43,341 bases of DNA from Paracoccaceae bacterium (GTDB lineage: Bacteria > Pseudomonadota > Alphaproteobacteria > Rhodobacterales > Rhodobacteraceae): contig JAYTCN010000464.1 of NCBI GenBank assembly GCA_043736475.1, positions 1 through 43,341 on the forward strand, written 5' to 3'. A program made the position numbers and the translations under genes. The notes under the pieces are model-generated. The model was not told where the DNA came from. It made no database searches and was given only the letters and a program-made list of their open reading frames with translations. Shown one piece after another: positions 3,091 through 35,059 of the stretch (within the stretch, counting starts at the first letter, position 1; the number at the start of each line of letters is the position of its first letter).

Positions 3091-3158
3091 TTCTCGCGAG
3101 GGTGTGATGGTCGTGACTTTGCCGGAATGTTCATATGGTTCCGGCGACGGCGAAGGGA

Positions 3159-6521: not shown

Positions 6522-6572
6522 CGCGTTCCTCCGCCGGGCGGGCGGCACCCGTCCCGGCCAATGCGCTTGCAT

Positions 6573-8266: not shown

Positions 8267-10693
8267 TTAATACAAGTCGATCCGGAACTTGTTGGCGCGC
8301 CAGTAGACGCCGGCAAGCAAGATCGCGCGTTCCACCGGATCGGTCTCGGCAATTTCTTCACCGCGCAGGTCCAGAACACGTTTCATCTCGGCCCGGCTGC
8401 CGGCACCGAAGGCGCCGTCAACAGCGATTTCGCCGCCAAATTCGTTGACCAGGCGCTGCGAAGCGGCGTTGACGGCGGCAACGGGCAGGTCGGCAAGCAG
8501 CTCGCGCGCCGACGCCGCCGAATCTTTGCCGCTCAGCGCTGCGGCCTTTGCGGCGCGCAGCGCCGCGTCTTCGGGTCCCATGCCGGGGACGTTACCCTCG
8601 GAGATGATCCAGCCCGCGTTGGCGCCGCTCCAGCCGTCGCCCCGCGACAATCCCAAATCGTACCATTCGACGGCGACGGCATGGTTGCCGGATGTGCCGA
8701 GCGCCCCACTGTACCACAGCCTGCCAAGCGAGCCCGGCGCCAGCGGATGACCGCCGCTTGCGGCCTTTTCGAACCAGGTTTCGGCCAATTTCGGGTCACT
8801 TTCCACGCCGGCAAGCCCGTCGAGGTAAACATAGCCAAGATTGTCGAAACCATAGATGTCGCCGCGAGCGGCGGATTCCTTCAGGTATCGAAATCCGCGT
8901 GGCGGGTCCGAATAGGCTGTGTCGGGATCAATGAAGTAGCTGCCCAATTCATTCATCGCGAACGTGTGGCCGAGTTCGAGCGCCCGCGACAAAAGTTCAT
9001 AACCTTCGGTGCGGACCTCGGCGTTACTGCCATAACGCAACAGTTGTTTGCCAAGGGCGTGATAGGCAAACGGGTCGCCGCGCTCGACGCCGACGCGATA
9101 CAAATCCAGCGCCGCTTGCGGTGCCTGTTCGGCGGATTTGCCCGACGTGATGGCTTCCTCCTTGGCGACCAGGACGCCCAGCGCATACCACGCACGGACG
9201 TGGCCGAGGTCCCTGGCTTTCTCAAAATCGGCGCGTGCTGCATCGAACTGCAACAGGGCAAGTTCGGCCCGGCCGCGTTGGTAATGGAATCGGCCCGCTT
9301 CGGGATATGCGGCGATGGCAGCATTGCAGGCCAGGATTGCGGCATCGGGTTCGATTTCGTTCGGATAGAGACCGAGGCCAACCCCATCGGGATCAAGGTG
9401 GTCGCCGGCCGCGCTGTCGCACGGGTCGGCGTCGAGCTTGATTTCAACTTTCGTCTCAACCCCGTTGACCGCCACGCTGAACGTGTCGGCGAGCACCGGC
9501 GCCAGCGGCTGATCTGCTGACGTCGGACTTGGCGCGCTGGTATAGACCAGCTTTTCCAGTTCCGCTGACGCCGCCGAAGGTTGGGTCGCATCGCGGCGCC
9601 GGTTGGCCAGATCGACCAGAGATATGAAACCATTTGCCGGTGGCTGGATAATGGTGATTGTGGCATCCGGATCAGACGCCAGAGCTGCGTTCAGCGCGGT
9701 TCCAATATCCACTTCGCGCTCCAGCGGTGCCTCCAGGACCAGCGTCGGTTGGTCGGGTGAACCGGTTACGGCGCTGACAACACCGGTGGCGACGCTCAAC
9801 ACCAATCCGCGCGTGTCGCCGATGCCGGACGTATCGGGTGTTTCCCGATCGGGGTCACCCGCCGAGCCATTGAGCGTGACGACCTCGACCAGAGTCGAAC
9901 TTTCCCACGGCACTTGTTTGCCTTCCGTCTGGTGGTAAACCGCGCGACGCACGTTTTCCAGCAATTGCCCGACCGGCATATCCGGGTTCGTCCGCGCCGC
10001 TTCGACCAAGGCAGAGGTGAAAGGGCTGTTACCGTTGGCCCCGTCATAAGCCACCATCCCCGGCGCAGTCGCGAACGCCAGCAGCGAATTGATCGGGGCG
10101 GTCAAGGTGTTGAACCCGTCGCGCGTTTCGGCCAACTCGCTCGAAAGGTCGGTGACCAACAAGGTATTGCCGAACGGATTGTTGCGGCAAGAGTCGAGGA
10201 TGACCAATTGCAGCCGCGCCCGCGCACCAAGAATGTTGACAACGCTGCTGAGCGATATTGCTTCAAAGGGCACGTCATAGGCGTTGTCAAGCGCGGCATC
10301 GACCGGAACCAGGTAGTTGCCGCCCGCTATTTGCAGGCCGTGGCCGGCGTAGTAGAAAATCACTTCGCTGTCCTTGTCGACGTCAAACAGGACCCGTCGC
10401 AGCACGCGCTCGAAACCAAACTTATCAAGATTCGTGTAGTCAAAAACGGTGTAACCCCGTTCCCGAAGCAGAGCGCTGACCAGTTCGGCGTCCGCGACGG
10501 CGTTGAGCAGGTCGGGGGCGACCAGATAGTCGCCGTTCCCGATCACGATGGCGTAGTGTTTAAGAACGGGATCCTGCAGATTAACCGGCCGGAACTGTAC
10601 CGGGGCAACCTCGGCGTCCGAATCCTGGGCGGCTGCCGTGCCGAGCAAGCAGGAAAAGCAGATCGCCAGCACGTTCAAAACCAGCTTTGTCAC
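8267..10693 (-). CDS. Exported caspase-family (peptidase C14) protein with Sel1-type repeats and a C-terminal peptidoglycan-binding-like domain
   Basis: A signal peptide ends at ...CLLGTAAAQD. The caspase His/Cys dyad is in context: VIFYYAGHGLQIAGGNYLVPVD and LQLVILDSCRNNPF. There are about 5 Sel1-like repeats (AWYALGVL, AYHALGKQLL, FAMNELGSYF, YGFDNLGYVYLDG...AETWFEKAASGGH, GSLGRLWYSG). The C-terminus RLVNEFGGEIAVDGAFGAGSRAEMKRVL resembles PG_binding_1. The GTG at 10693 sits 7 nt after the SD GGGAGGGG; the ORF-track start is TTG at 10699. Confidence 0.85.
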   Translation of the reverse strand: MTKLVLNVLAICFSCLLGTAAAQDSDAEVAPVQFRPVNLQDPVLKHYAIVIGNGDYLVAPDLLNAVADAELVSALLRERGYTVFDYTNLDKFGFERVLRRVLFDVDKDSEVIFYYAGHGLQIAGGNYLVPVDAALDNAYDVPFEAISLSSVVNILGARARLQLVILDSCRNNPFGNTLLVTDLSSELAETRDGFNTLTAPINSLLAFATAPGMVAYDGANGNSPFTSALVEAARTNPDMPVGQLLENVRRAVYHQTEGKQVPWESSTLVEVVTLNGSAGDPDRETPDTSGIGDTRGLVLSVATGVVSAVTGSPDQPTLVLEAPLEREVDIGTALNAALASDPDATITIIQPPANGFISLVDLANRRRDATQPSAASAELEKLVYTSAPSPTSADQPLAPVLADTFSVAVNGVETKVEIKLDADPCDSAAGDHLDPDGVGLGLYPNEIEPDAAILACNAAIAAYPEAGRFHYQRGRAELALLQFDAARADFEKARDLGHVRAWYALGVLVAKEEAITSGKSAEQAPQAALDLYRVGVERGDPFAYHALGKQLLRYGSNAEVRTEGYELLSRALELGHTFAMNELGSYFIDPDTAYSDPPRGFRYLKESAARGDIYGFDNLGYVYLDGLAGVESDPKLAETWFEKAASGGHPLAPGSLGRLWYSGALGTSGNHAVAVEWYDLGLSRGDGWSGANAGWIISEGNVPGMGPEDAALRAAKAAALSGKDSAASARELLADLPVAAVNAASQRLVNEFGGEIAVDGAFGAGSRAEMKRVLDLRGEEIAETDPVERAILLAGVYWRANKFRIDLY

Positions 10694-10762
10694 GAGCAAC
10701 CCCTCCCGAAATGCCGTGCCGGCCAGACGTTCGCCCGCACGCCCCCAAGGGACGGCAACCGA

Positions 10763-10975
<213 letters not shown>

Positions 10976-11209: not shown

Positions 11210-11827
11210 TCAGCTCATCGCCTGGAATTCCACCCGGCGGTTTTCGCCGGCATCGGGATCGGTCGTGTTGTAGAGGAATTGTTCGCCCACGCCGATGGCT
11301 TCCAGACGGGTGTCGGCGATGCCGCAATCATTGACAAAAAACCGCTCAACTTCTTCGGCCCGCAACAGCGACAGCCGCGAATTGTACTCCGCTCCGCCGC
11401 TGGCATCGGTATGGCCAATGATCCGAAAATGGTTGATGTCGGTATTGACCATGACCGCGCACAGCTGTTGCAGTTTCGGTCGCTGATCGTCGGTCAGGGC
11501 GGCGGAATCAAATCCAAAAACCACCCGAATATTGACCTGACGCTCAGGCGCCAGGACGGCGTTCACGTCCGCGGCCAATACGGTGCCGCCGGATTCCGCC
11601 GTTATCAATGCCTCTTCGGTTGCGACGGCCGCCTCGACGGCTTCGGCGCCAGCCTCGATCACGCTCAGGGACAGGCCACGGGTCTGGCCGTGAGCAGCGG
11701 CCGAAGTAAACATGTCGCGTTGCTGCAGAAACAGCGCCGTCAGCTCGGCGTCGGTCAGGTCTTGCGCGGCCGCTGCCAGGGGCGAAACCACTACCAGCGC
11801 CGCGGCATAAACGAATGATTTCCTCAT
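11210..11827 (-). CDS. OmpA-family (OmpA_C / peptidoglycan-associated) protein with signal peptide
   Basis: The signal peptide is MRKSFVYAAALVVVSPLAAAAQD. The C-terminal part is VVFGFDSAALTDDQRPKLQQL...FRIIGHTDASGGAEYNSRLSLLRAEEVERFF...GVGE...NRRVEFQA, the classic OmpA_C pattern. Confidence 0.9.
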   Translation of the reverse strand: MRKSFVYAAALVVVSPLAAAAQDLTDAELTALFLQQRDMFTSAAAHGQTRGLSLSVIEAGAEAVEAAVATEEALITAESGGTVLAADVNAVLAPERQVNIRVVFGFDSAALTDDQRPKLQQLCAVMVNTDINHFRIIGHTDASGGAEYNSRLSLLRAEEVERFFVNDCGIADTRLEAIGVGEQFLYNTTDPDAGENRRVEFQAMS

Positions 11828-11921: not shown

Positions 11922-12740
11922 GTGCACCGGGTTTCGGATGCGGACGCCCGGCAACGGGCGCAGATTGGCGGAACCCGTGCAGGCATGACGAATCCGGTTA
12001 CCCTCGTCCCCCGAATTCGGCCTCGCGCCCTTGCCCCGCGCGGTGCTGGCCGAACCCATACCGGGCTGGTGCGGCAGGTCAATGAGGATGCGATCCTGAC
12101 GGACCCCGCCGGTATTCTTTGGGCAGTCGCCGATGGTATGGGCGGCCACGGGCAGGGTGACATTGCTGCCGACGTGGTCATCGACAGCCTGTTGCGGCTG
12201 CCGCATTCGGGTGACCCTCGGCACATGCTCGCCATGGCACTGGAAGACGCCAATGCGATTGTGTTCGACCGCTCGCAGGGTGCGGGCAATGGTATTATGG
12301 GGGCGACGATTGTCGCCGCGGTGGTCGAGGGTGGATCGGCCGTGCTTGCCTGGGTTGGCGACAGCCGGGGCTGCCTGATCCGCGATGGCAAACTGACGCG
12401 GCTGACCAAGGATCATTCGCTGGTACAGGAAATGGTCGATGCCGGCGATTTGCCGCCGGAACTGGCCGAAGCGCACCCGCAGGCAAACGTGGTGACACGC
12501 GCAATCGGCGCGGCGAAGCATGTCGAGATTGATTTCAACCAGACCGCGCTGCGGGCGGGAGACGTGCTGTTGTTATGTTCCGACGGACTGTCGAAATGCG
12601 TTCCCGACGCCCATATCGCGGCGCTGCTGGGAAAGGTCGGTTCGCCGGAGGCCGCCTGCATCGAACTGGTGCGCGCGGCGCTGCGGGCAGGCGGACCCGA
12701 CAATGTTTCGGTCATTGTTGTATTCATGGAAGAGGCCTGA
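11922..12740 (+). CDS. pppA: PP2C-family Ser/Thr protein phosphatase (T6SS PppA-like)
   Basis: GLVRQVNEDA...LWAVADGMGGHGQGDIAADVV...LLCSDGL...GGPDNVSVIVV are PP2C hallmark motifs. The start is either GTG at 11922 or ATG at 11985. It pairs functionally with ppkA and fha elsewhere in the window. Confidence 0.85.
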   Translation: MHRVSDADARQRAQIGGTRAGMTNPVTLVPRIRPRALAPRGAGRTHTGLVRQVNEDAILTDPAGILWAVADGMGGHGQGDIAADVVIDSLLRLPHSGDPRHMLAMALEDANAIVFDRSQGAGNGIMGATIVAAVVEGGSAVLAWVGDSRGCLIRDGKLTRLTKDHSLVQEMVDAGDLPPELAEAHPQANVVTRAIGAAKHVEIDFNQTALRAGDVLLLCSDGLSKCVPDAHIAALLGKVGSPEAACIELVRAALRAGGPDNVSVIVVFMEEA

Positions 12741-12743
12741 GCC

Positions 12744-13619
12744 ATGAAGGCACCAAACCTTATTGCCGTTGCCATTGTCGGCGTCTGTCTGGTGCTGGCG
12801 TTTCTGGCCTGGTCTATTTTTGGCCGCCTGGCGGACGATACAGCGATTGACGGCGAGTTCACGCTGGCGGGACTGCAGGCCGAGCTCGGCTTGCAGAAAG
12901 CCGAGATCGAGGCGCTGCGCGGGCAGGTTGCCGCCGTTCAGGCTGAAATCGACCGGCTGAAAGGCACAGTCGAAATCATGCAGGCTGACCGGGAGCAGAG
13001 CGCGTCCATGCAGCCCGGCGCAGGCTTTGAGGTATTTGGCGAGCCGGAATTCGAAGAAGGGGCCGTTCCGGCGACCGAGGCCTTGAGCGAGCAGATGAAA
13101 CTGGCCAAAGAGCGGTTCAACAAGGGCATCATCCAGCCCAAAAACGCCTTCATGCTGGAAATGCTTGGTCCGCCGAGGCAGGATTATTCGACCGCGTGCC
13201 AGGGCGTATCCAATCCGCGCCTGTCCGCGACGCTGGAGACGCGCCAGATCGGCGGTTTCAAACTGACCATGCTGCGGCCAGCACTCGATTCGGTGGAAAA
13301 GATCATGCTGCGGCTGCAAACCGATGAACCGGAAATCTTTGCCGCACTGGGGACGGCGGGGGGTCTGTGCGTACGATTCATCCGCGGCTCGACCACGTCG
13401 ATTTCCAGCCATTCCTGGGGTGCGGCGGTCGATTTGACGCTTGAAGGCAAACTGGACGCGATGGGCGACGGCGGCACGCAATTCGGTCTGGTCATACTTG
13501 CCGAATTCTTCAACGATGAAGGGTGGTACTGGGGGGCTGGCTACGGGCGCGAGGATTCGATGCATTTCGAGATTGGAGAAGACCTGCTGCGCCAATGGAT
13601 TGCCGGGGGCGAGCTTTGA
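12744..13619 (+). CDS. Membrane-anchored M15-family (VanY / Peptidase_M15_4-like) zinc peptidoglycan peptidase; TagX-like candidate
   Basis: The N-terminal TM helix is LIAVAIVGVCLVLAFLAWSIF, followed by a coiled coil (LQAELGLQKAEIEALRGQVAAVQAEIDRLKG). The C-terminal catalytic motifs are SSHSWGAAVDL (SxHxxGxAxD) and EDSMHFE. The start lies 3 nt after the pppA stop and is preceded by the SD GGAAGAGG. Confidence 0.8.
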   Translation: MKAPNLIAVAIVGVCLVLAFLAWSIFGRLADDTAIDGEFTLAGLQAELGLQKAEIEALRGQVAAVQAEIDRLKGTVEIMQADREQSASMQPGAGFEVFGEPEFEEGAVPATEALSEQMKLAKERFNKGIIQPKNAFMLEMLGPPRQDYSTACQGVSNPRLSATLETRQIGGFKLTMLRPALDSVEKIMLRLQTDEPEIFAALGTAGGLCVRFIRGSTTSISSHSWGAAVDLTLEGKLDAMGDGGTQFGLVILAEFFNDEGWYWGAGYGREDSMHFEIGEDLLRQWIAGGEL

Positions 13620-16114
13620 GCGGCGATGATTTTTCGACGCCCAGAACCGTAATTCGCCCGCGATCAGCGGCGTCGGCACGCCCGCCAGACCCGACGCTGT
13701 TTGACGATCTGGCGCGACCGGTGCTGGCGCTGGCGGAAAGCCTGATGCGCGACCCGGCGCCGAATGCAAACCGGCTGTTGACCGAAGCGCGCGACGTGCT
13801 GGAGGCCTTTGAGAACGAGGCGTTGCGGCGCGGCGTCCACGCGGCCAGCCTTGCCCCGGCCAGATATGCCTTGCTCGTGGTCCTGGACGCCCATGCGCGG
13901 GCCAATCGGCGGATGCCCGTCAAGGCATGGTCAACCGGTGCCATGGCGGCACTGTTCCGCGGCCGCGACACCAATCTGGAGGGGCTGCGCAAAATACGGG
14001 AGCAGGGAGCGCGGGCGGGTGCGGAATATGCCGAGCTTGTGCGCTTCATCGATAAATGTATCGCTGCGGTGGACGGCAGCAGGGCCTACAAACCGGCGCA
14101 AAAGCGCCACGCCAGTGGCCGGGTATTGCTCGCGTTCGCGGCGCTGGCTGTGGTGGTTCTGGCCGGACTGGCGGGCTGGACGGAGTGGCGTTACCGAAAC
14201 GAATTGTTAGCCGAACTACCCGAAGACGCGGCGATTATTGCGGTCGGGGAGAAATTGCAGATTGCAAATTTCGCCGCCGAGATGGATCGCTATGCGGCCA
14301 AGGCCGATTCCGTCGCCGCGCGGGCGGCGGACTCGCCACTGGGGCTTATCCATCGTATTCCCTGGCTCGATCCGGCCAAAGCCGCGCAAGGCCGTCGCGG
14401 TGTGGTGGTGGATGCCCTGCTGCCGAAGCTGATGAGCGATGCGCTGGCGGTTGCGATCGCCTCTGAAGGGTCCGGGATCGCGCTGTACGATACGCTCCGC
14501 GCCTGGTCGATCCTGGCGGGCGAAACCGAATGGAGCCCGGCGTTTTTGCAAGGCTGGCTGGTGTCGCGGGAGGGTCAGGTTCCGGGCCTGGCCGGGCTGG
14601 CGTGGCATGTACCGGCCTTGACCGGTCCGGCCAGGGGAATTGCGGCACCGGACCCGGAATTGCTGGCGCAAGCCCTGGTGTTCGCGGGCGAGGCCAGCGA
14701 AAGCGAGCGCGCCTATCTGGAACTTGAGCGCTCGGAAGCGGCTGCGGATCTGCCACCCTGGAACGCGGTCGCGGCCGTGCCGCGCATCGATGTTGTGCTG
14801 ACGCGCCGATCCGGTCTGGCAATGGGTGATGGCATCGCCGGGCTGTTCAGCGCGACCGGCTGGGATTGGGCGGCAGCCGGGGGCACTGACCAGGCCTTAG
14901 AAGTGGCGCGGGCAGAAACGGCGAGACTGCGGATTGCCGCGCCAGCAGCCACCAGTGATCCGGCCGGGCAGGTTCTGGACCTGCTGCAAAAGGCCACGAT
15001 CAAAACGTGGAAGGATTTTCTTGCCGACCTCCGCGTCAAGCCGTTCTCGGATCAACCGGGCGCGGTGCTGATATCCGGCATTCTCGGCTCATCGGGTTCG
15101 CCTTTGAGCCAATTGGTCAACGAAGTCTGGCAGCAGGCGGGCGGGAATGACCGCACACGATCGCACCCGAACCAGCTGAAGATCGCCACCGAGTTCGGGA
15201 CGACACTGCAGTTTGTCGAACAGGGCAAGATGGCCGATATTTCCCAGATGTTTGCCGCGCTGAACGTGGCGCTGGCTTCGATCGAGGTCGATCAGGAAGT
15301 CGGCGTCCGACGACTGATGGACGTTCAAACGCGAGCCAATTCGATTGCCACCCTGCAGCAGGCACCGGTTCTGGTCGGGCAGATTGTCGAGGATGTGCTG
15401 GCCCAGACCAGCGCATCGAGCCAGGATCTGGTGGACAATGAATTCAACCTGTTGTGGCGCAGCCAAGTCTATCCGCACTGTGGCGAGGTCATGCAATCTT
15501 TCTATCCTTTCGCCGAGGGTGCCGATCTGGGCCGGGCGGATTTTGCCGGCCTGATCGGGCCGGGCGGCGTGCTCGACGGATTCTACACCCGGCAACTGGC
15601 GCGGCTGATGGACACGAGCGCGCATCCGTGGCGTTGGAAACCCGAAGCCCGACTGGCCGGATTCACGCCTGACTCGGCCGCCTTTTTTGAAATATTGGCG
15701 GCCGTTCGGGCTGCCTATTTCGGCAACGGCGCCAGCCTTGACACAGCGGTCAGACTTTCGGCGCTGGCCGAACGCGGTTCGGCGCAAATTTCGATTGGCG
15801 GGGCGAGTGCGCCGGTCGTGACCACCGGCGAACCGGCGGCTTTGGCCTGGCCGGGCCCGCAGCCGGAACTCGGGGTTTCGATTGTCTTTGAAACCGGGAC
15901 CGGCCAGCAATCACGCGATGCTCCGGGTGAATGGGGCCTTTTGCATTTGCTGGACGGATTGCGGATCAGGCAGCGCGATGAAGGTCAGCGGTTCCTGGTT
16001 GATCTGCGCTCGGGCGATGCAAGGCTGTTCGTCGAAATGGCGTTCGATGACCCCGCCAATCCGGTCTCGGGCCGCAGCCTGCTGCGCGGACTGGTCTGCC
16101 CGGCGTTATTGTGA
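13616..16114 (+). CDS. DotU(TssL)-like N-terminal domain + single TM + IcmF(TssM)-like periplasmic domains; an ATPase-less TssL/TssM hybrid paralog
   Basis: The ORF is 13523..16114. The probable TTG start at 13616 overlaps the M15 TGA stop (TTGA); an alternative ATG lies at 13595. The N-terminus SGDDFSTPRTVIRP and ARYALLVVLDAHA parallel TssL in this window (DDPFGLSEDLGRTRIRP, AAWCVGALLDDLA). The TM helix is VLLAFAALAVVVLAGLAGW. The C-terminal part is collinear with TssM: YPFAEGADLGRADFAGLIGPGGVLDGFYTRQLARLMDTSAHPWRWK versus YPFSPGSSIDVNVADFAKIFGPGGLIDVFTNDKLAPYIDTTQKPWAWR. I saw no Walker A motif. Confidence 0.8.
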   Translation: MSGDDFSTPRTVIRPRSAASARPPDPTLFDDLARPVLALAESLMRDPAPNANRLLTEARDVLEAFENEALRRGVHAASLAPARYALLVVLDAHARANRRMPVKAWSTGAMAALFRGRDTNLEGLRKIREQGARAGAEYAELVRFIDKCIAAVDGSRAYKPAQKRHASGRVLLAFAALAVVVLAGLAGWTEWRYRNELLAELPEDAAIIAVGEKLQIANFAAEMDRYAAKADSVAARAADSPLGLIHRIPWLDPAKAAQGRRGVVVDALLPKLMSDALAVAIASEGSGIALYDTLRAWSILAGETEWSPAFLQGWLVSREGQVPGLAGLAWHVPALTGPARGIAAPDPELLAQALVFAGEASESERAYLELERSEAAADLPPWNAVAAVPRIDVVLTRRSGLAMGDGIAGLFSATGWDWAAAGGTDQALEVARAETARLRIAAPAATSDPAGQVLDLLQKATIKTWKDFLADLRVKPFSDQPGAVLISGILGSSGSPLSQLVNEVWQQAGGNDRTRSHPNQLKIATEFGTTLQFVEQGKMADISQMFAALNVALASIEVDQEVGVRRLMDVQTRANSIATLQQAPVLVGQIVEDVLAQTSASSQDLVDNEFNLLWRSQVYPHCGEVMQSFYPFAEGADLGRADFAGLIGPGGVLDGFYTRQLARLMDTSAHPWRWKPEARLAGFTPDSAAFFEILAAVRAAYFGNGASLDTAVRLSALAERGSAQISIGGASAPVVTTGEPAALAWPGPQPELGVSIVFETGTGQQSRDAPGEWGLLHLLDGLRIRQRDEGQRFLVDLRSGDARLFVEMAFDDPANPVSGRSLLRGLVCPALL

Positions 16115-18002: not shown

Positions 18003-19544
18003 GTGCGGCATTTGATTTTCGTCCTGTTGTTCTTGGCGTCACCGCTGGCCGCCGCAGCCGAGGGCCGTGTGGCGCTTCTGATCGGCAATGCAAGCTATGA
18101 GTTGCCCGGGCTGGTGCTGAAAAATCCTGGCAATGATGCGGTGGCGATGGCCGACACTTTGCGCGGCATCGGCTTTCAGGTCACTGAAGTCCTCGATGCG
18201 ACCGGCGCCGCGATGGAACAGGCGCTGGCGGAGTTTGCCGCCGCCGCCCAGGGTGCCGAAGTGGCGCTGTTCTATTACGGCGGCCACGGGGTCGAGATCG
18301 GTGGCGAGAACTACCTGATCGGCACAGATTTTGCCGATCTTTCGCAGGGTTTGGCGCTATCGGCGCTGCCGGTTGCCAGGATCCGCGAAGCGATGAGCGC
18401 GGCCGACCCCGGCATTGGGCTGATCATCCTCGATGCCTGCCGCGACAATCCGTTTGCCCAGGCCGGACTTGCCGCGCCGGGCCTGGCCCGCGCGCAAGGC
18501 GCGCTTGGGTTGCTGATTGCCTTTGCCGCCGAGCCCGGAAAGATCGCGTTCGACGGCAGTGGCGACAACTCGGTTTTCACCGAGGCGCTGCTCGACAATA
18601 TCACCGCCGACGGCGTCGAGGTGCGGATCATGCTTGGCCGGGTGCGCCAACAGGTGGCGATGGCCACCTCGGGCAATCAGGCGCCGCTGGTTGAAGACGG
18701 CACCATCGGCGAAAACTATCTGGGATCGCCTGAAGCCGGCGCGCTGGCTGCCGATGCCTTTGCCGAGGAAATGGCGCTCTGGCGGGTTGCCAGCACGTCG
18801 CCAGACGCAGGCAGGGTGCGGGAATATCTGGTAAAATATCCCGACGGCCTGTTCGTGGCCTTTGCCCGTGACCGGGCGGCCGAGCTGGACCGGCTGGCCA
18901 ACAAGTCGCTCGCCAACAGCACGTTTGCTGATCTGGTCAAATCCGACCCGCAGCGGATCGGTGCGGCACTGCTGGCGCTGGGTTTCTTGCCTGCCGGGGC
19001 GCATTCCGCAAGCGAACTGGCCGCCGGTTTTGCCGCCTATAGCGCCGGTCAGCCGGTTCCGGCCAATGCCAACGTGGCCCAATTATATGCCGATGCAACC
19101 AGCCGGATGGCCTTCCTGGCCGCGGCCACGGCGCAGAAGATCCGGACCGATCTGGTGGCGCTGTCGGCGGTGCAGCGGACGCTGGAGATCAGCGAGGTCG
19201 CGTTGTCCGAGATCCGGACCATTGCCGAGTCCAACCCCGATGCCGAGCCGGTTTTGCAGGCAGCCGAGGCCGATATGGCTGAAATCCGGGCGAGCCGCGA
19301 ACGGATCATGCGGCGCCTTGATGGTACGCGGACATATTACGATGATTTGCTGAAGGCAGCTTACCGGAATTTTGCCTCCGAAACCCGGCAGGTTGGCGAA
19401 AGACAGCAAACCAATGCCAGCGCATCGCCTGTGGAAAAAACTCTGGCCGCCGATATTTCACGATTTGCCCGGCAGGTTGCGGAGCTGACCCCCGATACCG
19501 AGGGGGCCATGGCCTGGCTGGCAGATTTCGTGCCGAAGAGTTAG
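18003..19544 (+). CDS. Exported caspase-family (peptidase C14) protein, second copy
   Basis: The signal peptide is MRHLIFVLLFLASPLAAAAEG (GTG start). The dyad contexts are VALFYYGGHGVEIGGENYLIGTDF and GLIILDACRDNPF. About 270 aa at the C-terminus are A/L-rich and helical, with no domain I can name. Confidence 0.85.
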   Translation: MRHLIFVLLFLASPLAAAAEGRVALLIGNASYELPGLVLKNPGNDAVAMADTLRGIGFQVTEVLDATGAAMEQALAEFAAAAQGAEVALFYYGGHGVEIGGENYLIGTDFADLSQGLALSALPVARIREAMSAADPGIGLIILDACRDNPFAQAGLAAPGLARAQGALGLLIAFAAEPGKIAFDGSGDNSVFTEALLDNITADGVEVRIMLGRVRQQVAMATSGNQAPLVEDGTIGENYLGSPEAGALAADAFAEEMALWRVASTSPDAGRVREYLVKYPDGLFVAFARDRAAELDRLANKSLANSTFADLVKSDPQRIGAALLALGFLPAGAHSASELAAGFAAYSAGQPVPANANVAQLYADATSRMAFLAAATAQKIRTDLVALSAVQRTLEISEVALSEIRTIAESNPDAEPVLQAAEADMAEIRASRERIMRRLDGTRTYYDDLLKAAYRNFASETRQVGERQQTNASASPVEKTLAADISRFARQVAELTPDTEGAMAWLADFVPKS

Positions 19545-20266: not shown

Positions 20267-22993
20267 TCATTCAAACGTATAGGTAAAGCCTTTCTCGTCC
20301 GCCCCGACGGTGACTTTTGCCAGCGGTTTACCCTCCAGCGTGCGGTTCAGCACCCCGCGGCTGAGTTCGGGCAAGAGCGTGTTGGTCAGGATGGCGTCGA
20401 TCATCCGCCCGCCCGATTCGATTTCGGTGCAGCGGGCCTTGATCAGGTCCATCACCCCGTCGCCGACCACCAGTTCGGCGTCCTGGCCCGAGCGCAGGCG
20501 GTTGCCGATCTTGCGCAGCTGGTGCCCGGCGATCATCTCGATCATTGAATCGGACAAAGGGTAATACGGGATGGTGATCAGGCGGCCGAGCAAAGCTGCC
20601 GGGAAGACTTTCAGCAAGGGTGCGCGCAGGGCTTTGTTCAGCGCCTCCTGATCGACCGCTGAACGGCCGTTCCCGGTCATGTGCATGATCTCGGCCGAGC
20701 CGACATTCGAGGTCAGGATGATCAGGGTGTTCTTGAAATCGATCCGCCGTCCTTCGCTGTCATCCATCATGCCTTTGTCGAAGACCTGGAAGAAAATCTC
20801 GTGCACGTCGGGATGGGCCTTTTCGACCTCGTCGAGCAGGATCACCGAATAGGGTCGCCGACGCACCGCCTCGGTCAGGATGCCGCCCTTGCCATAGCCG
20901 ACGTAGCCCGGCGGCGCGCCTTTCAGGGTGGAAACGGTATGCGCCTCCTGAAACTCGCTCATGTTGATCGAGATCAGGTTCTGCTCGCCGCCATAGAGGG
21001 TTTCGGCCAGCGCCAGCGCGGTTTCGGTCTTGCCGACCCCCGACGGGCCGCAGAGCATGAACACCCCGACCGGTTTTTCCGGTGCGCCCAATCCGGCCCG
21101 GGTGGTCTGCACCCGGCGGGCGATCTGTTCCATCGCGTGATCCTGGCCGACCACCCGTTCCGACAGGATCTGGGCCAACTGCAGGGCTTTTTCGGTCTGG
21201 CTGGTCAGCATGCGACCCATCGGGATGCCGGTCCAGTCCTGCGCCACCGAGGCGACGGCGTTTTGATCGACCGAGGGCAGGATCAGCGGGGTTTCGCCCT
21301 GGGCCACGGCCAGTTCGGCCATCAATGCTTTCAGCCGGGCCAGATTGGCGTCGCGGTCGGGCGCGGGTTCGGCGGGCGCTTCGGCCGGTTCCTTGGCATC
21401 GGCTTCAGCAAGGCCAGCTTCGCCGTCGTTTGCTTCTGTATCCGCTGTCGCATCCAGCGCGACGCCCTCGCCGCGCAGGGTCGCCCGCAGCTCGAGAATG
21501 TCTTTCACCAGCGCCTTTTCGGCGTCCCAGCGAATTTGCGCCGCCGCCAAAGCCTCGCGAACCGTTACCAGCCCGGCTTCGACTTTCGCCCGGCGTTCGG
21601 CGGCGTCGATGCCGATCGCTTCCTCGCGCCCGATGATGCCTTCCTCGACCAGCAGCGCCGATTCGCGCCGCCGCAAATCCTCCACTTCCGCCGGGGTCGC
21701 GTGCTGGCTGATCGCCACCCGGGCGCAGGCGGTGTCGAGCAGGCTGATCGCCTTGTCGGGCAATTGGCGGGCCGGGATGTAGCGGTGCGACAGGTGGACG
21801 GCGGCTTCCAGCGCCTCGTCGAGAATCTGGACCTGATGGTGTTTTTCCAGCACGCCAGCGACGCCGCGCAGCATCAGCACCGCCGATTCCTCGGAGGGTT
21901 CCTCGATCTTGACCACCTGGAAGCGCCGGGTCAGGGCCGGGTCTTTCTCGATATGTTCCTTGTATTCGGCCCAGGTCGTGGCCGCGACCGTGCGCAACTC
22001 GCCGCGCGCCAGCGCCGGTTTCAGCAGGTTCGCCGCATCGCCGGTACCTGCCGCACCGCCGGCGCCGATCAGGGTATGGGCTTCGTCGATGAACAGGATC
22101 ACCGGGGTTTCGGAAGACTGCACCTCGTCGATCACCGATTTCAGCCGTTTTTCGAATTCACCTTTCACCGATGCCCCGGCCTGCATCAGGCCGATGTCGA
22201 GCATGTGCAAGGCGACATTCTGCAGCCCTGGCGGCACGTCGCCCTGGGCGATGCGCAGGGCAAAGCCTTCGACGACCGCGGTCTTGCCGACCCCGGCCTC
22301 GCCGGTCAGGATCGGGTTGTTCTGGCGGCGGCGCATCAGCACGTCGATGATCTGGCGAATTTCGGGGTCGCGGCCGACCACCGGGTCGATCTTGCCCGCT
22401 TTCGCCCGCTCGGTCAGGTTGGTGGCATATTGCGCCAGCGCCGATTTGCCGCCGGGAGCCGGGCGCGGGGTTTTTTCGGAAGTGGCCGAACCGCCGCCCT
22501 CGAGCGACTGGACCAAGAGGTCGTCCAGCTGTTCGGCCATTGCGTCGGGGTCGATTTTCGCGAATTCGAGGCTGATTTTCAGCAGCAATGCCTCGAGAAC
22601 CGGTTTCTTCATCGCGCCGAGCAGGACATAGGCCGAGCGGACTTCCTGCTGGGAAAACTTCAGCGCGGCAAAACTCCAGGCGGTCTCGACCGCATCGAAA
22701 ATATGCTCGGAAAAATCCGACAGCGACGTGGAGCCATGCGGGAGCCTGTCGGTCATCCGTGCCATGTCGGAAGCAAGCCGGGCGGAATCGATGCCGGCGG
22801 CTTGCAGCAGGATGGCGAAATCGGAGCGCTCCGACAGCGCCAGCTGCTCGATCAGATGGACCAGCTCGACATAGGGATTGCCGCGCATCTTGGCGGTGTC
22901 GGCGGCGGCCTTGAAGGCACGCAGGCAGGTCGGATTCAGTTTTCCGACCAATTCCTTGCGTTTGAAACTTTCCTGCGATCCGCGTTCTTGCAT
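20267..22993 (-). CDS. clpV: T6SS AAA+ ATPase ClpV (TssH)
   Basis: The protein is 908 aa. It has two Walker A boxes (GEAGVGKTAVVEG and CGPSGVGKTETA), a Clp N-domain and a ClpB-type D2-small domain. The SD GGAGG lies upstream of the ATG at 22993. Confidence 0.95.
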   Translation of the reverse strand: MQERGSQESFKRKELVGKLNPTCLRAFKAAADTAKMRGNPYVELVHLIEQLALSERSDFAILLQAAGIDSARLASDMARMTDRLPHGSTSLSDFSEHIFDAVETAWSFAALKFSQQEVRSAYVLLGAMKKPVLEALLLKISLEFAKIDPDAMAEQLDDLLVQSLEGGGSATSEKTPRPAPGGKSALAQYATNLTERAKAGKIDPVVGRDPEIRQIIDVLMRRRQNNPILTGEAGVGKTAVVEGFALRIAQGDVPPGLQNVALHMLDIGLMQAGASVKGEFEKRLKSVIDEVQSSETPVILFIDEAHTLIGAGGAAGTGDAANLLKPALARGELRTVAATTWAEYKEHIEKDPALTRRFQVVKIEEPSEESAVLMLRGVAGVLEKHHQVQILDEALEAAVHLSHRYIPARQLPDKAISLLDTACARVAISQHATPAEVEDLRRRESALLVEEGIIGREEAIGIDAAERRAKVEAGLVTVREALAAAQIRWDAEKALVKDILELRATLRGEGVALDATADTEANDGEAGLAEADAKEPAEAPAEPAPDRDANLARLKALMAELAVAQGETPLILPSVDQNAVASVAQDWTGIPMGRMLTSQTEKALQLAQILSERVVGQDHAMEQIARRVQTTRAGLGAPEKPVGVFMLCGPSGVGKTETALALAETLYGGEQNLISINMSEFQEAHTVSTLKGAPPGYVGYGKGGILTEAVRRRPYSVILLDEVEKAHPDVHEIFFQVFDKGMMDDSEGRRIDFKNTLIILTSNVGSAEIMHMTGNGRSAVDQEALNKALRAPLLKVFPAALLGRLITIPYYPLSDSMIEMIAGHQLRKIGNRLRSGQDAELVVGDGVMDLIKARCTEIESGGRMIDAILTNTLLPELSRGVLNRTLEGKPLAKVTVGADEKGFTYTFE

Positions 22994-23052
22994 GGCCGTC
23001 GAGACCTCCAGGGGTTTGCGTATGATTCACGGTTGAAAAAATGGCGGCGTTG

Positions 23053-23068
23053 CCTGTAGCCTTACAGG
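23053..23068. promoter_or_regulatory. Perfect palindrome CCTGTA-gcct-TACAGG in the clpV / ppkA divergent intergenic region
   Basis: Read directly from the sequence. It lies 60 nt upstream of clpV and about 70 nt upstream of the ppkA ATG, so it is a candidate operator. Confidence 0.3.
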
Positions 23069-23138
23069 ACTTCTTCGTTCCGGGCAAAAGCCGAAACGCC
23101 AGCTTGCCGAGATTTTGTCACTGCCGGAGACAATACGA

Positions 23139-24986
23139 ATGATAGCCCCGCTTCCCGGTGACATTTTCAAGCCCGGCCAGGTGCTGAACAATACCTATGA
23201 AATCGAGGGCATCCTCGGTCGCGGTGGCACCGGCGAGGTTTACCGGGCCCGCAACCAGATTTCCGGCCGGATCGTGGCACTGAAGGCGCTGAACGCCGAA
23301 TTTTCCGGCAATGCCGATTATCTGGAACTGATGAAGCGCGAAGAGGAAATGCGCGACATCATCCACGATGCGGTGGTGCGCTATTCCGACAACAGCCGCA
23401 CCGCCGACGGCCATGTGTTTCTGGTGATGGATTTTGTCGACGGACCGTCGCTGAACGAATTGCTGCATCGCGGCAACGCCAGCCCGCGCGACCTGCTGAT
23501 CGTCTGCCACCGGGTGGCGGGCGGTCTGGTGGCCACGCATGCGCGCCAGATCGTCCACCGCGACCTTTCGCCCGACAACATCATCCTGCGCAAGGGCGAC
23601 CCGGCGCAGGCGGTCATTATCGATTTCGGCATCGCCAAGGATGAGTCGGTGGGTGCGCGCACCATTGTCGGCAACGATTTTGCCGGCAAATACGAATATG
23701 CCGCACCCGAACAGATGGACGGGCGCGCGGAGCCGCGCTCGGACTTGTATGCCCTGGGAGCCTCGCTCCTGGCCACCTATCGCGGCCAGGTGCCGAATGT
23801 CGGCAGCACGCCGGGCGAAGTGGTGCGGCGCAAGGGCAAGGCGCTGGATACTGCGGGTGTGCCCGAGCCGTTAAAGGAACTCATCGACTGGCTGACCCAG
23901 CCCGACGCGGCGCAGCGCCCGGCCAACGCGGCGGCCGTGGTGACGCATCTGGACGAAGTTCTGAAGCCAAAGGGGCGGCAAACAGTATTGACCAAGCCCG
24001 TCGCCCAAAAGTCGCGGCGCGGACGGCGCGGGCTGCTTTTCCTGGTTCCGGTGCTGGCGATCGTCATTGCGGCGGTGGTATTGCTGCCAGCTGAACTGTC
24101 GCGGTGGTTCCCCGACGCCACGGTCGAAACGCCGCCGGTTGTGCCGGAACAGCCGGTGGAACCGAGTCCGGAATCGCCACAGCCGCCACCCGACGACGCG
24201 GCGACGGACACGACGCCACCGCCCGCCGAAGTGTTACCCCCGCCGAAACCCGATCTGCAGGTGGCGGCGATTCTTGATCTTCTGGGCAAATTGAGGGCAT
24301 GTGGCCCGCTGGCGGTGGATTCTGGCGGCCTGACCGCGCTGGCTCCCGCCGCGGCGGTCATCGTGTCGGGCAAGGTCGCCAGCGAGGCCGAGCGCGACAA
24401 GGTGATCGCCGCGCTGGCCAACGTCGCCGACGGTCGCCAGGTCCGCTTTGCCGCAACGCTGCTGACCGCAGAAATCTGCCGCATCCTCGAACTTTTGCCC
24501 GAAACGGCCGGCGGCCAGGTGTCAACGGCATTGAGCCACGACGGCGGCCAGGGCAATTTTACCGGTGTCTATTCAATTGGCGACATGATCATCGCCGATA
24601 TCTTGCTGTCCGAAACCATGGCCGACCAGCACATCTGGGCGTTTCTGGTCGACAACAAGACCGCGCTGAACATCTTGCCCAATGTGAATTTTCCCGAAAC
24701 AAGGGCCGGAAATCTGGGAAATTCCGCAGCCGGGTTGCGCAAAGTCCGGCTGCTTTACACCAGCGCCGAACGCAAGGTGCCCGATCTGTGGGGATACGAG
24801 GTGACCGAAGCTGACATCGGCAAGAAACTGCTGGTCGTCATGCTCTCGCCGCAACCGCTGTTCCCCGGTGCCCGTCCGGCGACGGAATCGGTTGAATCGA
24901 TGGCCGAAGCTCTCGAGCAAGTACTTCTGCAGCCCGAATTCAAGCTGACCGCGATTTCCACCAGTCTGCTCGACCTGCGCGAATGA
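23139..24986 (+). CDS. ppkA: Transmembrane Hanks-type Ser/Thr protein kinase (T6SS PpkA-like)
   Basis: Kinase motifs are present: GRGGTGEVYRARN (Gly loop), VALK, HRDLSPDNIIL, DFGIAK and APEQ. A TM helix (LLFLVPVLAIVIAAVVLL) and a Pro-rich linker follow, then a periplasmic domain of about 240 aa. The ATG is at 23139; the ORF-track TTG is at 23115. Confidence 0.9.
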   Translation: MIAPLPGDIFKPGQVLNNTYEIEGILGRGGTGEVYRARNQISGRIVALKALNAEFSGNADYLELMKREEEMRDIIHDAVVRYSDNSRTADGHVFLVMDFVDGPSLNELLHRGNASPRDLLIVCHRVAGGLVATHARQIVHRDLSPDNIILRKGDPAQAVIIDFGIAKDESVGARTIVGNDFAGKYEYAAPEQMDGRAEPRSDLYALGASLLATYRGQVPNVGSTPGEVVRRKGKALDTAGVPEPLKELIDWLTQPDAAQRPANAAAVVTHLDEVLKPKGRQTVLTKPVAQKSRRGRRGLLFLVPVLAIVIAAVVLLPAELSRWFPDATVETPPVVPEQPVEPSPESPQPPPDDAATDTTPPPAEVLPPPKPDLQVAAILDLLGKLRACGPLAVDSGGLTALAPAAAVIVSGKVASEAERDKVIAALANVADGRQVRFAATLLTAEICRILELLPETAGGQVSTALSHDGGQGNFTGVYSIGDMIIADILLSETMADQHIWAFLVDNKTALNILPNVNFPETRAGNLGNSAAGLRKVRLLYTSAERKVPDLWGYEVTEADIGKKLLVVMLSPQPLFPGARPATESVESMAEALEQVLLQPEFKLTAISTSLLDLRE

Positions 24987-25062
24987 GCGCTGACCGACGC
25001 AGAACTTGCGCGATTCAGCCAAACGTGGCTAAGCTGAGGCCAGCCTTTCTTTCACAAAGCGG

Positions 25063-26214: not shown

Positions 26215-26236
26215 CCGACAGGAAAAGGTGAGCAAG

Positions 26237-26776
26237 ATGGCCGAAAGCAAGGCAAAAGTAATCGAACGGAATCGTGCGCCGCGCGTGCAGATTGCGTATG
26301 ATGTCGAACATTATGGCAGTCCGACCACGATCGAATTGCCTTTTGTGATGGGTGTGATGGCCGATTTGTCGGGTGCCAGTGAAACGCCGGAAGCGCAAAA
26401 AGCGGTGCTGGACCGTAATTTCGTCGAGACAGACGCCGGACGCTTCAACAAGTTCATGGAAGCCCTGGGCCCGCGGGTGAAGGCCCGGGTGAAAAACACG
26501 CTTCCCGGCAAGGAAGGCGCGGAGGCCGATGAAGAGATGTTCGTTGACCTGTCCTTCAAGAGCATGGGCGATTTCGCGCCAGACAAGGTGGCCGAACAGG
26601 TGCCGGCGCTGGCCGAAATCCTGAAGATGCGCAAGCAGCTGGAAGAACTGCTTGGTTTCATGGATGGCCGTGTCGATGCCGAGAAACGTATCGCCCAGCT
26701 CCTGGCCAACGAACCATTGCTGCAACAGGTTTCCGATGAGGCCATGAAGGCCAATGCCGGCAAAGTAGAGGATTAA
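26237..26776 (+). CDS. tssB: T6SS contractile sheath small subunit TssB
   Basis: MAESKAKVIERNRAPRVQIAYDVEHYGSPTTIELPFVMGVMADLSG is the canonical TssB/VipA start. The ATG is at 26237, inside the 26189 ORF. Confidence 0.95.
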   Translation: MAESKAKVIERNRAPRVQIAYDVEHYGSPTTIELPFVMGVMADLSGASETPEAQKAVLDRNFVETDAGRFNKFMEALGPRVKARVKNTLPGKEGAEADEEMFVDLSFKSMGDFAPDKVAEQVPALAEILKMRKQLEELLGFMDGRVDAEKRIAQLLANEPLLQQVSDEAMKANAGKVED

Positions 26777-26781
26777 CGCAA

Positions 26782-28290: not shown

Positions 28291-28317
28291 CCGTGTTCAA
28301 AGCAAAGGAGAATCGCC

Positions 28318-28767: not shown

Positions 28768-28792
28768 GTTCGGGATGGGTCAGAATTGAAAG

Positions 28793-33670: not shown

Positions 33671-33723
33671 CGGTGACGATCCTGCCGAACTTCCGGACGA
33701 CCCGAGCAGAAGAAAGGCCGTGA

Positions 33724-35055: not shown

Positions 35056-35059
35056 TCAG

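Follow-up and report, generated by a model that had tools for sequence, protein, structure and literature searches.

The locus described here raises the question of whether a predicted exported caspase-like protease, encoded at the border of a T6SS cluster, belongs to that machine or simply adjoins it. To our knowledge, bacterial caspase homologs are numerous, but a substrate or a physiological role is known for almost none of them, and the exported ones are essentially unstudied. The envelope accessories of T6SS are lineage-specific and position or trigger the machine, and no protease is catalogued among them. An exported C14 protease would be a candidate for proteolytic, post-translational control of T6SS assembly in the Alphaproteobacteria, which, as far as we know, lack TssJ-type and TagQRST-type parts. 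A recurrent link between exported C14 proteases and T6SS edges would provide a system amenable to genetics for identifying a first substrate of this protease family; were the link incidental, the protein would be one more uncharacterised periplasmic protease.

The gene lies on the minus strand of the window, the whole stretch of 43,341 nucleotides that was analysed. An ORF of 810 residues spans 8267–10699 when TTG 10699 is taken as the start. The likely start is GTG 10693, two codons (6 nt) downstream, which is preceded at 6 nt by GGGAGGGG, a good Shine–Dalgarno sequence, and gives an 808-residue product that is 100% identical to the database gene call P0001. The features of the gene are as follows.

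8267..10693, minus strand: coding sequence of the C14–Ig–TPR/Sel1 protein, 808 residues plus stop (ORF, Shine–Dalgarno sequence and P0001 identity)
10625..10693, minus strand: Sec-type signal peptide, residues 1–23, MTKLVLNVLAICFSCLLGTAAA followed by QD (hydrophobicity and AxA heuristic)
9887..10558, minus strand: Peptidase_C14 (caspase-fold) domain (Pfam, MALT1 alignment, residues invariant in homologs)
10340–10342, minus strand: codon of His118 (808-residue numbering)
10187–10189, minus strand: codon of Cys169 (808-residue numbering)
9428..9742, minus strand: Ig-like β-sandwich domain, residues ~318–422 (AF2 model, weak Foldseek matches)
9134..9427, minus strand: invariant Cys/Asp-rich segment followed by TPR helices (residues ~449–520; alignments, AF2 model)
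8549..9133, minus strand: Sel1-like repeat solenoid of about five repeats, residues ~521–715 (Pfam Sel1, PDB matches)
8270..8533, minus strand: C-terminal four-helix domain, residues 721–808 (AF2 pLDDT 90.7; possibly PG_binding_1-like, unproven)

The N-terminus consists of Lys3, a hydrophobic 10-mer (Kyte–Doolittle 2.89) and then AAA with cleavage before QD. This pattern is common to 23 of 28 homologs, the other five resembling truncated gene calls, and the AxAQ column is the consensus in the homolog alignment. The protein is thus predicted by sequence rules to be Sec-exported, and the signal peptide proposed in the preliminary description is upheld. A lipoprotein reading of the N-terminus was ruled out, as there is no conserved lipobox.

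Residues 48–271 match Pfam Peptidase_C14 (PF00656) with E=4.9e-37 and 128.3 bits against a cut-off of 21.4, and the profile is covered almost entirely (positions 2–229 of 233). The motif pair YYAGHG/LDSCR corresponds residue for residue to YYAGHG (His415) and LDMCR (Cys464) of MALT1, so that His118 is equivalent to His415 and Cys169 to Cys464, with an identical spacing of 49 residues; both residues are invariant across the 28 aligned homologs. Two acidic S1 residues are also retained, Asp68 (MALT1 Asp365) and Asp167 (MALT1 Asp462), and both are invariant in the same alignment. The protein is apparently a catalytically competent C14 protease of the metacaspase/paracaspase type, as predicted from these residues, and, since the two acidic S1 residues are conserved, it probably cleaves after Arg or Lys. 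Glu500 of MALT1, which we take to be the third S1-pocket residue, falls outside the HMMER alignment; the invariant Asp217 is a candidate counterpart. The match to NCBIfam NF047832 (EACC1-associated caspase), at 40.9 bits, was far below the cut-off of 140. The caspase/hemoglobinase fold, the His–Cys dyad in the identical motifs YYAGHG and LDxCR, and the two acidic S1 residues are common to MALT1, the metacaspases and the bacterial orthocaspases (MEROPS C14B). Those proteins are cytoplasmic, whereas the present one is predicted to be Sec-exported, and Ig-like, TPR/Sel1 and small helical C-terminal domains replace their death, Ig or p10-type modules.

The C14 domain is followed by a poorly conserved Pro/Ala/Gly-rich linker (residues ~270–317) and by a region with no Pfam match. 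In the AF2 model of this central region (mf79842776c84; pLDDT 89.4) it forms a β-sandwich, with strands from E2 to E104 at pLDDT ~75–92, and the weak Foldseek matches of the domain were to MtxA Big-like and phage collar Ig-like domains. Next comes the Cys/Asp-rich segment DPCD..AGDHLDP.G.G...NE (Cys425...Glu446), whose lettered positions, together with Cys456, are invariant columns in two homolog alignments. AF2 places a short helix and a long loop over the segment and then TPR helices at pLDDT 96–98. The TPR structure matches superpose with an r.m.s.d. of 1.1–1.4 Å over ~66 columns; the Pfam TPR_16/17 matches are weak. The two invariant cysteines would be compatible with an oxidising compartment. 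The solenoid is recognized by Pfam Sel1 (PF08238; 49.5 bits against a cut-off of 30.7), and Sel1 proteins of the PDB align over residues ~500–700 (4bwr, E=5.6e-26; 6ok3, E=1.8e-21; also 8sxq and SEL1L). Five to six repeats are counted by the GD/GH-x-x-A...LG motif, and orthologs at loci L035 and L038 score 98–111 bits for Sel1, with three to four separate repeats.

The C-terminal domain has VDGxFGxxS as a conserved motif and ends in an invariant FRxDLY; in its AF2 model the VDGAFG loop joins helices 2 and 3. Pfam returned no PG_binding_1 (PF01471) match to the C-terminus even at E≤10, and the C-termini of the homologs reached only 13.9–17.5 bits against cut-offs of 23–24.6 (for PG_binding_1 itself, 13.9–17.1 bits against 23). 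The best match of a family profile to the PDB was 1lbu (E=0.046), followed by 7rum, 5tv7 and 4xxt (E to 1.2), all sub-threshold. Foldseek searches with the domain gave nothing significant against the PDB (7rum at rank 13, E=9) or BFVD (a Paracoccus phage endolysin at the top, E=0.44, TMq 0.48). The domain may touch peptidoglycan.

The preliminary description, which had been made from the DNA alone, therefore fared unevenly at the protein level. Its intact C14 His/Cys dyad, its central β-rich region, its roughly five Sel1 repeats and its overall picture of an exported C14 protease with a repeat-based interaction platform all agree with the present data. Its PG_binding_1-like C-terminus is no more than a sub-threshold lead, and the attribute of being cell-wall-tethered depends on this similarity, which never reaches significance.

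The C14+Sel1 architecture has been known since 2012, when a catalogue by Asplund-Samuelsson et al. (PMC3501461) recorded combinations of prokaryotic metacaspase domains with Sel1/TPR repeats, with Sel1 in 6% of 671 sequences. Those architectures often have an N-terminal helix or signal peptide, as here; the survey gave no function for them, reported no T6SS association and describes neither the Ig-like domain nor the invariant Cys/Asp loop nor the C-terminal domain.

The caspase gene forms the outer end of the T6SS cluster. As stated in the preliminary description it is next to T6SS genes, and the full cluster lies to its right-hand side; its other flank is an unrelated LacI and sugar-utilisation block. 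The cluster comprises the following features.

11210..11827, minus strand: OmpA-family (Pal/YfiB-like) gene (Pfam OmpA, E=4.3e-16)
11922–12740, plus strand: PP2C phosphatase gene (pppA), the first gene of a divergent accessory operon at 11922..16114 (Pfam)
12744–13619, plus strand: TagX-like Peptidase_M15_4 gene, M15/VanY class (Pfam, NCBIfam)
13523–16114, plus strand: 'TssM-like' DotU + IcmF-related + IcmF_C fusion (Pfam, NCBIfam)
18003..19544, plus strand: second exported Peptidase_C14 gene, 513 residues (Pfam E=2.9e-33; signal MRHLIFVLLFLASPLAAAA followed by EG, by heuristic)
20267..39933: core T6SS with a threonine-phosphorylation switch (Pfam; Hcp by ORF)
28318–28767: Hcp ORF

The OmpA-family gene is directly upstream of the caspase gene and on the same strand, and the pppA–M15–TssM-like operon is divergent from it. 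The OmpA-family protein has a signal-peptide-like N-terminus with no lipobox Cys and gave sub-threshold matches only in NCBIfam; none of the accessory genes received a curated name from that library. A Gly-rich lipoprotein-like ORF between the OmpA and caspase genes (10763–10975, minus strand) was set aside because it is conserved at no other locus. A lipoprotein encoded at 16145–16780 has a faint TagQ match (21.7 bits against a cut-off of 300); together with an OM barrel it occupies 16145–17815. The core encodes ClpV (minus strand), PpkA, TssA, TssB, TssC, Hcp, TssE, TssF, TssG, Fha, TssK, TssL and TssM, and its PpkA combines a TM helix with a predicted periplasmic domain of ~280 residues.

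The caspase protein belongs to a large 'caspase family protein' family of about 800 residues, found mostly in the Rhodobacterales. Linkage was scored by locus as the presence of T6SS genes within 10 kb. By this measure 16 of the 46 orthologous loci are linked; among other C14 paralogs of that scan the figure is two of 36 (odds ratio 9, p=0.002, with no correction for phylogeny). At least five kinds of arrangement occur among the linked loci. The caspase gene may follow the OmpA gene on the same strand (the window, L002, Tabrizicola and L087), be convergent with it, i.e. inverted at the same position (L081 and L085), be convergent with ppkA (L021), lie directly 3′ of ppkA between tssKLM and tssBC (L038 and L065) or lie directly 3′ of an ImpA_N gene (L035–L037). 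Some of these are embedded within Hyphomicrobiales T6SS clusters: in Aestuariivirga the gene sits between tssKLM-pppA-ppkA and tssBC, and in Labrys it comes after the ImpA_N gene. The most constant neighbour on the T6SS side is the OmpA-family gene, which adjoins the ortholog in L002, L008, L011–L013, L017, L043, L081, L085 and L087. The PP2C/TagX-like/TssM-like accessory module is kept in at least 15 loci. Sampling in reverse, from the TssM-like gene, placed a C14–Sel1 gene near OmpA in three of six informative loci, so about half of the independently sampled OmpA–PppA–TagX-like–TssM-like modules carry the caspase gene.

About two thirds of the orthologs have no T6SS gene inside 10 kb, and the closest long-contig homolog (P0003, 62% identity) sits amid the housekeeping genes lpxK, kdtA and thrS. 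In the tree, T6SS-linked members are spread over at least five clades, interleaved with unlinked ones and with no distinguishing features. All-against-all ORF clustering of 42 loci turned up nothing shared family-wide other than the caspase gene and the ORF antisense to it; beyond the T6SS module the gene has no conserved neighbour. Because the window, L012 and L013 share flanking genes on both sides, some linked cases are not independent. Border hitch-hiking of the gene is possible in the window, given its place at the cluster edge and the synteny of its flanks with the Tabrizicola-type loci. The linkage is recurrent but facultative, and since most orthologs are unlinked and no clade is T6SS-specific, the molecular function of the family cannot be T6SS-specific. 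The co-occurrence expected by the preliminary description is found in other genomes but not as a rule. None of the three outcomes that the description named as refuting it was observed: the C14 match is highly significant, the dyad aligns with catalytic positions and T6SS neighbours occur elsewhere.

Lineage-specific exported accessories encoded beside ppkA are an established theme, as in TssW (PMC12607579) and TagQRST (PMC13584744). Like the caspase protein, TagQRST, TssW and TagX bear signal peptides, are lineage-specific, are dispensable in many systems and are encoded beside ppkA/pppA or membrane-complex genes. None is a caspase-clan protease, and no sequence homology to the caspase protein was detected. 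T6SS accessory factors were reviewed in 2026 (PMC13584744) with no mention of caspase, protease or Sel1, and literature searches on T6SS with caspase/C14/Sel1 and on roseobacter metacaspases found nothing about the present family. TagK was dropped as a caspase-domain accessory, being an AraC-family regulator according to the same review.

We put at about 50% the probability that the caspase protein is a periplasmic family protease which, in this lineage, has optionally been recruited as a T6SS processing or regulatory helper. It would be a Sec-exported C14 cysteine protease, placed in the periplasm by its predicted signal peptide, whose TPR/Sel1 solenoid most likely brings in a protein substrate or partner, and the basic job of the alphaproteobacterial family would be to cleave proteins of the envelope. 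A sizeable minority of lineages would have recruited the gene to that accessory border of PpkA/PppA/Fha-type T6SS clusters which faces the envelope, a border made up of the OmpA-family protein, PppA, the TagX-like M15 peptidoglycan peptidase, the TssL/TssM-like fusion and PpkA. There it would most likely act as an optional processing or regulatory protease that adjusts either how the extra envelope complex is assembled or what PpkA receives as periplasmic input. The domain anatomy, the dyad with the two acidic S1 residues, the export signal as judged by sequence rules and the recurrent but facultative linkage are shown; we infer the localisation, the specificity, any substrate and any effect on T6SS. 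The helper role is plausible and would be optional, and the substrates named in the preliminary description (the lipoproteins, the TssM-like protein and PpkA) are guesses. NlpI–Prc and LbcA–CtpA are pairs of a TPR adaptor and a periplasmic protease that destroy peptidoglycan hydrolases, and TPR-CHAT (Csx29) of type III-E CRISPR is a cytoplasmic, RNA-guided clan CD enzyme fused to TPR. In each a TPR-type platform hands specific protein substrates to a protease, a likeness to the arrangement predicted for the caspase protein. Prc and CtpA are, however, serine S41 enzymes on separate polypeptides, and the caspase protein has the reverse domain order to these systems, with the protease first.

That the protein serves the Rhodobacterales as a general housekeeping or quality-control protease of the periplasm and has no functional connection with T6SS is a serious possibility to which we nevertheless give clearly less than even odds. 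Adjacency would then reflect inherited border synteny, or T6SS islands that repeatedly land near envelope genes. The unlinked majority, the setting of P0003, the tree without a T6SS-specific subclade, the position right at the cluster border and the shared flanks of the window, L012 and L013 all favour this reading; the five or more arrangements with true embedding in the Aestuariivirga and Labrys clusters, the inversion at the same position in L081 and L085 and the roughly nine-fold enrichment over other C14 paralogs speak against it. It is doubtful that the protease is, conversely, a genuine periplasmic part of a T6SS subtype, a proteolytic checkpoint that would cut PpkA in its periplasmic domain, the TssL/TssM-like fusion or the TagX-like wall hydrolase and in this way license or stop firing.

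Two narrower roles follow from particular neighbours. As an analogue of TagR/TagQ, RtkS or TssW, the protein might be a periplasmic sensor or activator of the PpkA–PppA–Fha pathway that binds or clips PpkA in its periplasmic domain. Threonine-phosphorylation (TPP) genes are often the T6SS genes closest to the caspase gene (pppA on the other side of the divergent promoter in the window, ppkA directly upstream in L038 and L065, ppkA convergent in L021), the PpkA of the window has a periplasmic domain to act on and other lineages have exported PpkA-regulating accessories beside ppkA. We regard this as unlikely, because nearly all of these alphaproteobacterial clusters have TPP genes, so that proximity discriminates poorly, L094 has tssKLM-tagF-pppA-ppkA without a C14 gene and Pfam and NCBIfam gave no homology to TagR, TagQ or TssW. 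Control of wall remodelling at the T6SS site, by degradation or processing of the TagX-like M15 peptidase or the OmpA-family anchor in the manner of NlpI–Prc and LbcA–CtpA, would suit the constant adjacency to the OmpA and M15 module, the TPR/Sel1 platform, the weakly PG_binding_1-like C-terminal motif and the S41 (Ctp-type) protease gene that adjoins the Labrys ortholog. The argument is wholly by analogy, peptidoglycan binding is not established by the sub-threshold matches and the Hyphomicrobiales arrangements have no adjacent M15 or OmpA gene, which makes this role quite unlikely. That the protein is a T6SS effector or a Sel1-repeat immunity protein is very improbable, even though Sel1-repeat immunity proteins are reported from Klebsiella T6SS loci and caspase-like toxin domains occur in polymorphic toxins (PMC3482391). 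Signal peptide, conservation pattern and gene context all disfavour it: T6SS cargo carries no Sec signal peptide, effector–immunity pairs evolve fast whereas this 800-residue family is well conserved with an invariant dyad, most members lie outside T6SS loci and no VgrG, PAAR or DUF2169 gene is adjacent, the nearest adaptor-type gene being the DUF2169 gene at the opposite end, about 30 kb away.

The second exported C14 gene within the cluster was missed in the preliminary description. The motifs of its product are YYGGHG and LDACRDNPF. If the checkpoint role were true, the two exported C14 enzymes of the cluster could form a small periplasmic protease cascade.

The reading frame at positions 8267-10699 (minus strand) encodes 810 amino acids. 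A GTG at 10693, 6 nt inside this frame, has GGGAGGGG upstream at the right distance, and the 808-residue product from this start, whose numbering is used here, is identical to the database gene call P0001. The protein matches Pfam Peptidase_C14 over nearly the full profile (E = 4.9e-37; 128 bits against a cut-off of 21.4) and Pfam Sel1 with 49.5 bits against a cut-off of 30.7. As both matches are far beyond chance and P0001 reproduces the product, the frame is a real gene. Residues 42-195 were aligned with the MALT1 paracaspase using phmmer against the PDB (E ~1e-11), with YYAGHG placed on YYAGHG and LDSCR on LDMCR. His118, Cys169, Asp68 and Asp167 pair with MALT1 His415, Cys464, Asp365 and Asp462, respectively, and conversion from chain to protein numbering gives back the known 49-residue spacing between His415 and Cys464. 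All four residues are invariant in A1, an alignment of 28 full-length homologs (44-63% identity), and the C14 domain with an intact His/Cys dyad that had been read from the sequence is confirmed. Asp365 and Asp462 belong to the S1 pocket of MALT1, which has three acidic residues; the third falls outside the alignment. Because Asp68 and Asp167 match these two residues, the protein is predicted to cleave after Arg or Lys, like metacaspases and orthocaspases.

At the N-terminus, MTK is followed by LVLNVLAICFSCLLG and TAAA↓QD, giving one basic residue, a hydrophobic core (top 10-mer Kyte-Doolittle value of 2.89) and an AxA site. This pattern is common to 23 of the 28 homologs; the other five products are shorter, as if their starts had been mis-called. 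No conserved lipobox was found at the N-terminus among the 28. Cys425 and Cys456 are invariant in A1, which fits an oxidising compartment. A signal peptide, as proposed in the preliminary description, and export by the Sec route are therefore predicted from these features.

A model of residues 318-512 was generated with AlphaFold2 (input alignment of 24 sequences; pLDDT 89.4). The central β-rich region noted previously is predicted to be a β-sandwich (residues ~318-422), followed by a short helix, a long loop and TPR helices. Foldseek matches of the sandwich to Ig-like folds were weak (MtxA, E = 7e-4; phage collar proteins). The helical part superposes tightly on TPR structures (r.m.s.d. 1.1-1.4 Å over ~66 columns), and the Pfam TPR matches around residues 450-520 are weak. 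Residues ~520-715 align with multi-repeat Sel1 proteins of the PDB (4bwr, E = 5.6e-26); by motif, five clear repeats and one degenerate repeat were counted, in keeping with the five or so expected. The long loop carries the invariant segment DPCD..AGDHLDP.G.G...NE (9344-9421, minus strand), with a second invariant cysteine 31 residues further on; the two cysteines possibly form a disulfide or metal site.

The last 88 residues are modelled as four helices (pLDDT 90.7), and the homolog alignment shows two features there: the loop VDGxFGxxS is conserved, and the FRxDLY at the end is invariant. It was on this loop that the C-terminus had been called PG_binding_1-like. The full protein gave no Pfam match to PG_binding_1 at E ≤ 1; isolated homolog C-termini reached at most 13.9-17.5 bits against PG_binding_1 or PG_binding_3, and that of the window's protein matched neither. 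With the family profile, PG_binding_1 proteins were four of the six top PDB matches, but at E = 0.046-1.2. Foldseek of the domain against the PDB returned nothing significant, and the top match in a viral structure library was an endolysin (E = 0.44). The likeness points in the same direction throughout and never reaches significance; it is retained as a lead, and tethering to the cell wall is consequently not established. The FRxDLY tail (8270-8287, minus strand) is strictly C-terminal, with alternating hydrophobic residues and an aromatic end, and is reminiscent of an OMP β-signal or a PDZ/TPR-binding C-terminus. The TPR adjoining the DPCD loop superposes best in Foldseek on carboxylate-clamp TPRs, which bind C-terminal peptides.

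A protein search identified more than 1,700 relatives. The best 120 of these are all about 780-840 residues long, combine C14 with Sel1 and, where named, are 'caspase family protein' from Rhodobacterales/Paracoccaceae. The nearest among the matches listed shares 63% identity, and in the tree the protein groups with Amaricoccus-like sequences, which points to a member of the Paracoccaceae from a genus not yet sampled as the probable source. The C14-Sel1 combination was catalogued in prokaryotic metacaspases in 2012, when no function was given for it; many of the examples also have an N-terminal helix or signal (PMC3501461).

The gene lies between the following features of the window.

1-7800: sugar oxidoreductases, a periplasmic binding protein and a LacI regulator, left of the caspase gene
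8267-10693, minus: caspase gene
11210-11827, minus: OmpA-family protein
11922-16114, plus, divergent: operon of a PP2C phosphatase, a TagX-like Peptidase_M15_4 protein and a DotU + IcmF fusion
16145-17815, minus: lipoprotein and probable outer-membrane barrel
18003-19544, plus: second exported C14 protease, dyad intact

To the right is a complete type VI secretion system (T6SS) with a threonine-phosphorylation switch (ClpV, PpkA, TssA, TssB, TssC, Hcp, TssE, TssF, TssG, Fha, TssK, TssL, TssM, TagF and DUF2169). Nearly all products encoded from the caspase gene to ClpV are envelope proteins. With the sugar/LacI block on one side and the T6SS envelope block on the other, the caspase gene is the outermost gene of the cluster.

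Linkage was assessed in 79 loci with 10 kb flanks from a scan of species-representative genomes, probed by tblastn with all neighbours of the caspase gene. T6SS genes lay within 10 kb of the full-length ortholog in 16 of 46 loci (the window and two loci found through protein look-ups among them), against 2 of 36 for other C14 paralogs of the same scan (odds ratio 9, p = 0.002, uncorrected for relatedness). Co-occurrence with T6SS thus recurs, but 30 of the 46 orthologs have no T6SS gene within 10 kb. Across the ortholog loci no conserved neighbour was found beyond T6SS genes. Linked members are scattered over at least five clades of a neighbour-joining tree, interleaved with unlinked ones, and their arrangements differ.

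Arrangement of the caspase gene in linked loci (L numbers are homologous loci from other genomes)
Behind the OmpA gene, in the same orientation: window, Aliiroseovarius, Tabrizicola, L087
Convergent with the OmpA gene: L081, L085
Convergent with ppkA: Ruegeria L021
Directly downstream of ppkA, between tssKLM-tagF-pppA-ppkA and tssBC: Aestuariivirga L038, L065
Directly downstream of an ImpA_N gene: Labrys L035-L037

In a reverse, unbiased sample, metagenomes searched with the TssM-like fusion, six loci had enough flank; a C14-Sel1 gene was near the OmpA gene in three but not in the other three.

Exported, lineage-specific accessories beside ppkA are a known theme: TagQRST are envelope sensors feeding PpkA (PMC13584744), and TssW, whose gene neighbours ppkA, is an outer-membrane protein with a signal peptide that binds PpkA and TssM through their periplasmic domains and sets the position of the machine (PMC12607579). 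TagX, an M15/VanY-type endopeptidase, helps the machine to cross the wall (PMC13584744). A 2026 review of T6SS accessory factors nowhere mentions caspase, protease or Sel1 (PMC13584744), and the literature searched describes no caspase-clan protease in such a role.

In the best-supported reading, the protein is an active C14 protease that is exported, probably cuts after Arg or Lys and uses its repeats as a platform for a protein partner; it belongs to a family that is conserved in alphaproteobacteria and whose core function is not T6SS-specific. In a considerable minority of lineages the gene would have been recruited to the envelope/regulatory edge of T6SS clusters. An incidental linkage is a possibility of real weight, short of even odds: the closest long-contig homolog (62% identity) sits among lpxK, kdtA and thrS, and the flanking genes are common to the window and Tabrizicola-type loci, so that part of the linked cases reflect inheritance and do not count as independent; on the other side stands the excess of linked orthologs over paralogs. 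The Sec signal, the context and the way the sequence is conserved make a T6SS effector or immunity protein very unlikely. The protein is an orthocaspase with interaction repeats, and its gene is a candidate T6SS accessory. Its target may be the periplasmic domain of PpkA; it may instead be the TssM-like complex, the OmpA anchor or the TagX-like hydrolase; or it may be nothing T6SS-related. The preliminary description is largely right in its observations, the C-terminal domain excepted, and partly supported in its interpretation.

The second C14 protein (513 residues) is predicted to be Sec-exported, with YYGGHG and LDACRDNPF intact; Pfam matches nothing in its helical C-terminal region of ~280 residues. 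Further separate C14 genes of this type are found close to T6SS accessory genes in L002 (12545-13198), L031 (17474-18139, adjoining M15) and L034. Beside the embedded C14-Sel1 ortholog of Labrys L035 lies a gene for an S41 (Ctp-type) PDZ protease (13631-15064, minus strand), and beside that of Aestuariivirga L038 a histidine kinase and LuxR-type response regulator pair (12918-14471, minus strand); these Hyphomicrobiales flanks hint at further proteolytic or regulatory partners.

The PP2C/M15_4/fusion module (11922-16114) recurs in at least 15 loci. Its 863-residue fusion joins DotU (TssL-like), IcmF-related and IcmF_C domains without the TssM N-terminal domain and looks like a second, fused membrane-complex paralog; the GTG listed as its start creates a 97-nt overlap with the M15 gene, and the true start probably lies further downstream. 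Within 16145-17815, the lipoprotein has an LAAC lipobox, a Gly-zipper and a faint, sub-threshold likeness to TagQ (21.7 bits against 300); the 341-residue protein starts with a signal peptide and ends in ...GYRF, as outer-membrane β-barrels typically do; the plus-strand frame at 16136-16768 is probably spurious. No match to the TssJ family was found among the frames scanned. Between the OmpA and caspase genes, a 70-residue lipoprotein-like frame (10763-10975, minus strand; MGYKLKTKILRILLGLLAAPLVSAC...) ends in 14 consecutive glycines; it has no tblastn match in any other locus and is therefore perhaps not a genuine gene. At the opposite end of the cluster (40448-42588, plus strand), the DUF2169 gene is followed by a 3-oxoacyl-ACP-synthase-like gene (PRK06147, 427.8 bits against an NCBIfam cut-off of 342), an unusual neighbour for a T6SS; the pair also adjoins T6SS genes in L002 and L021.
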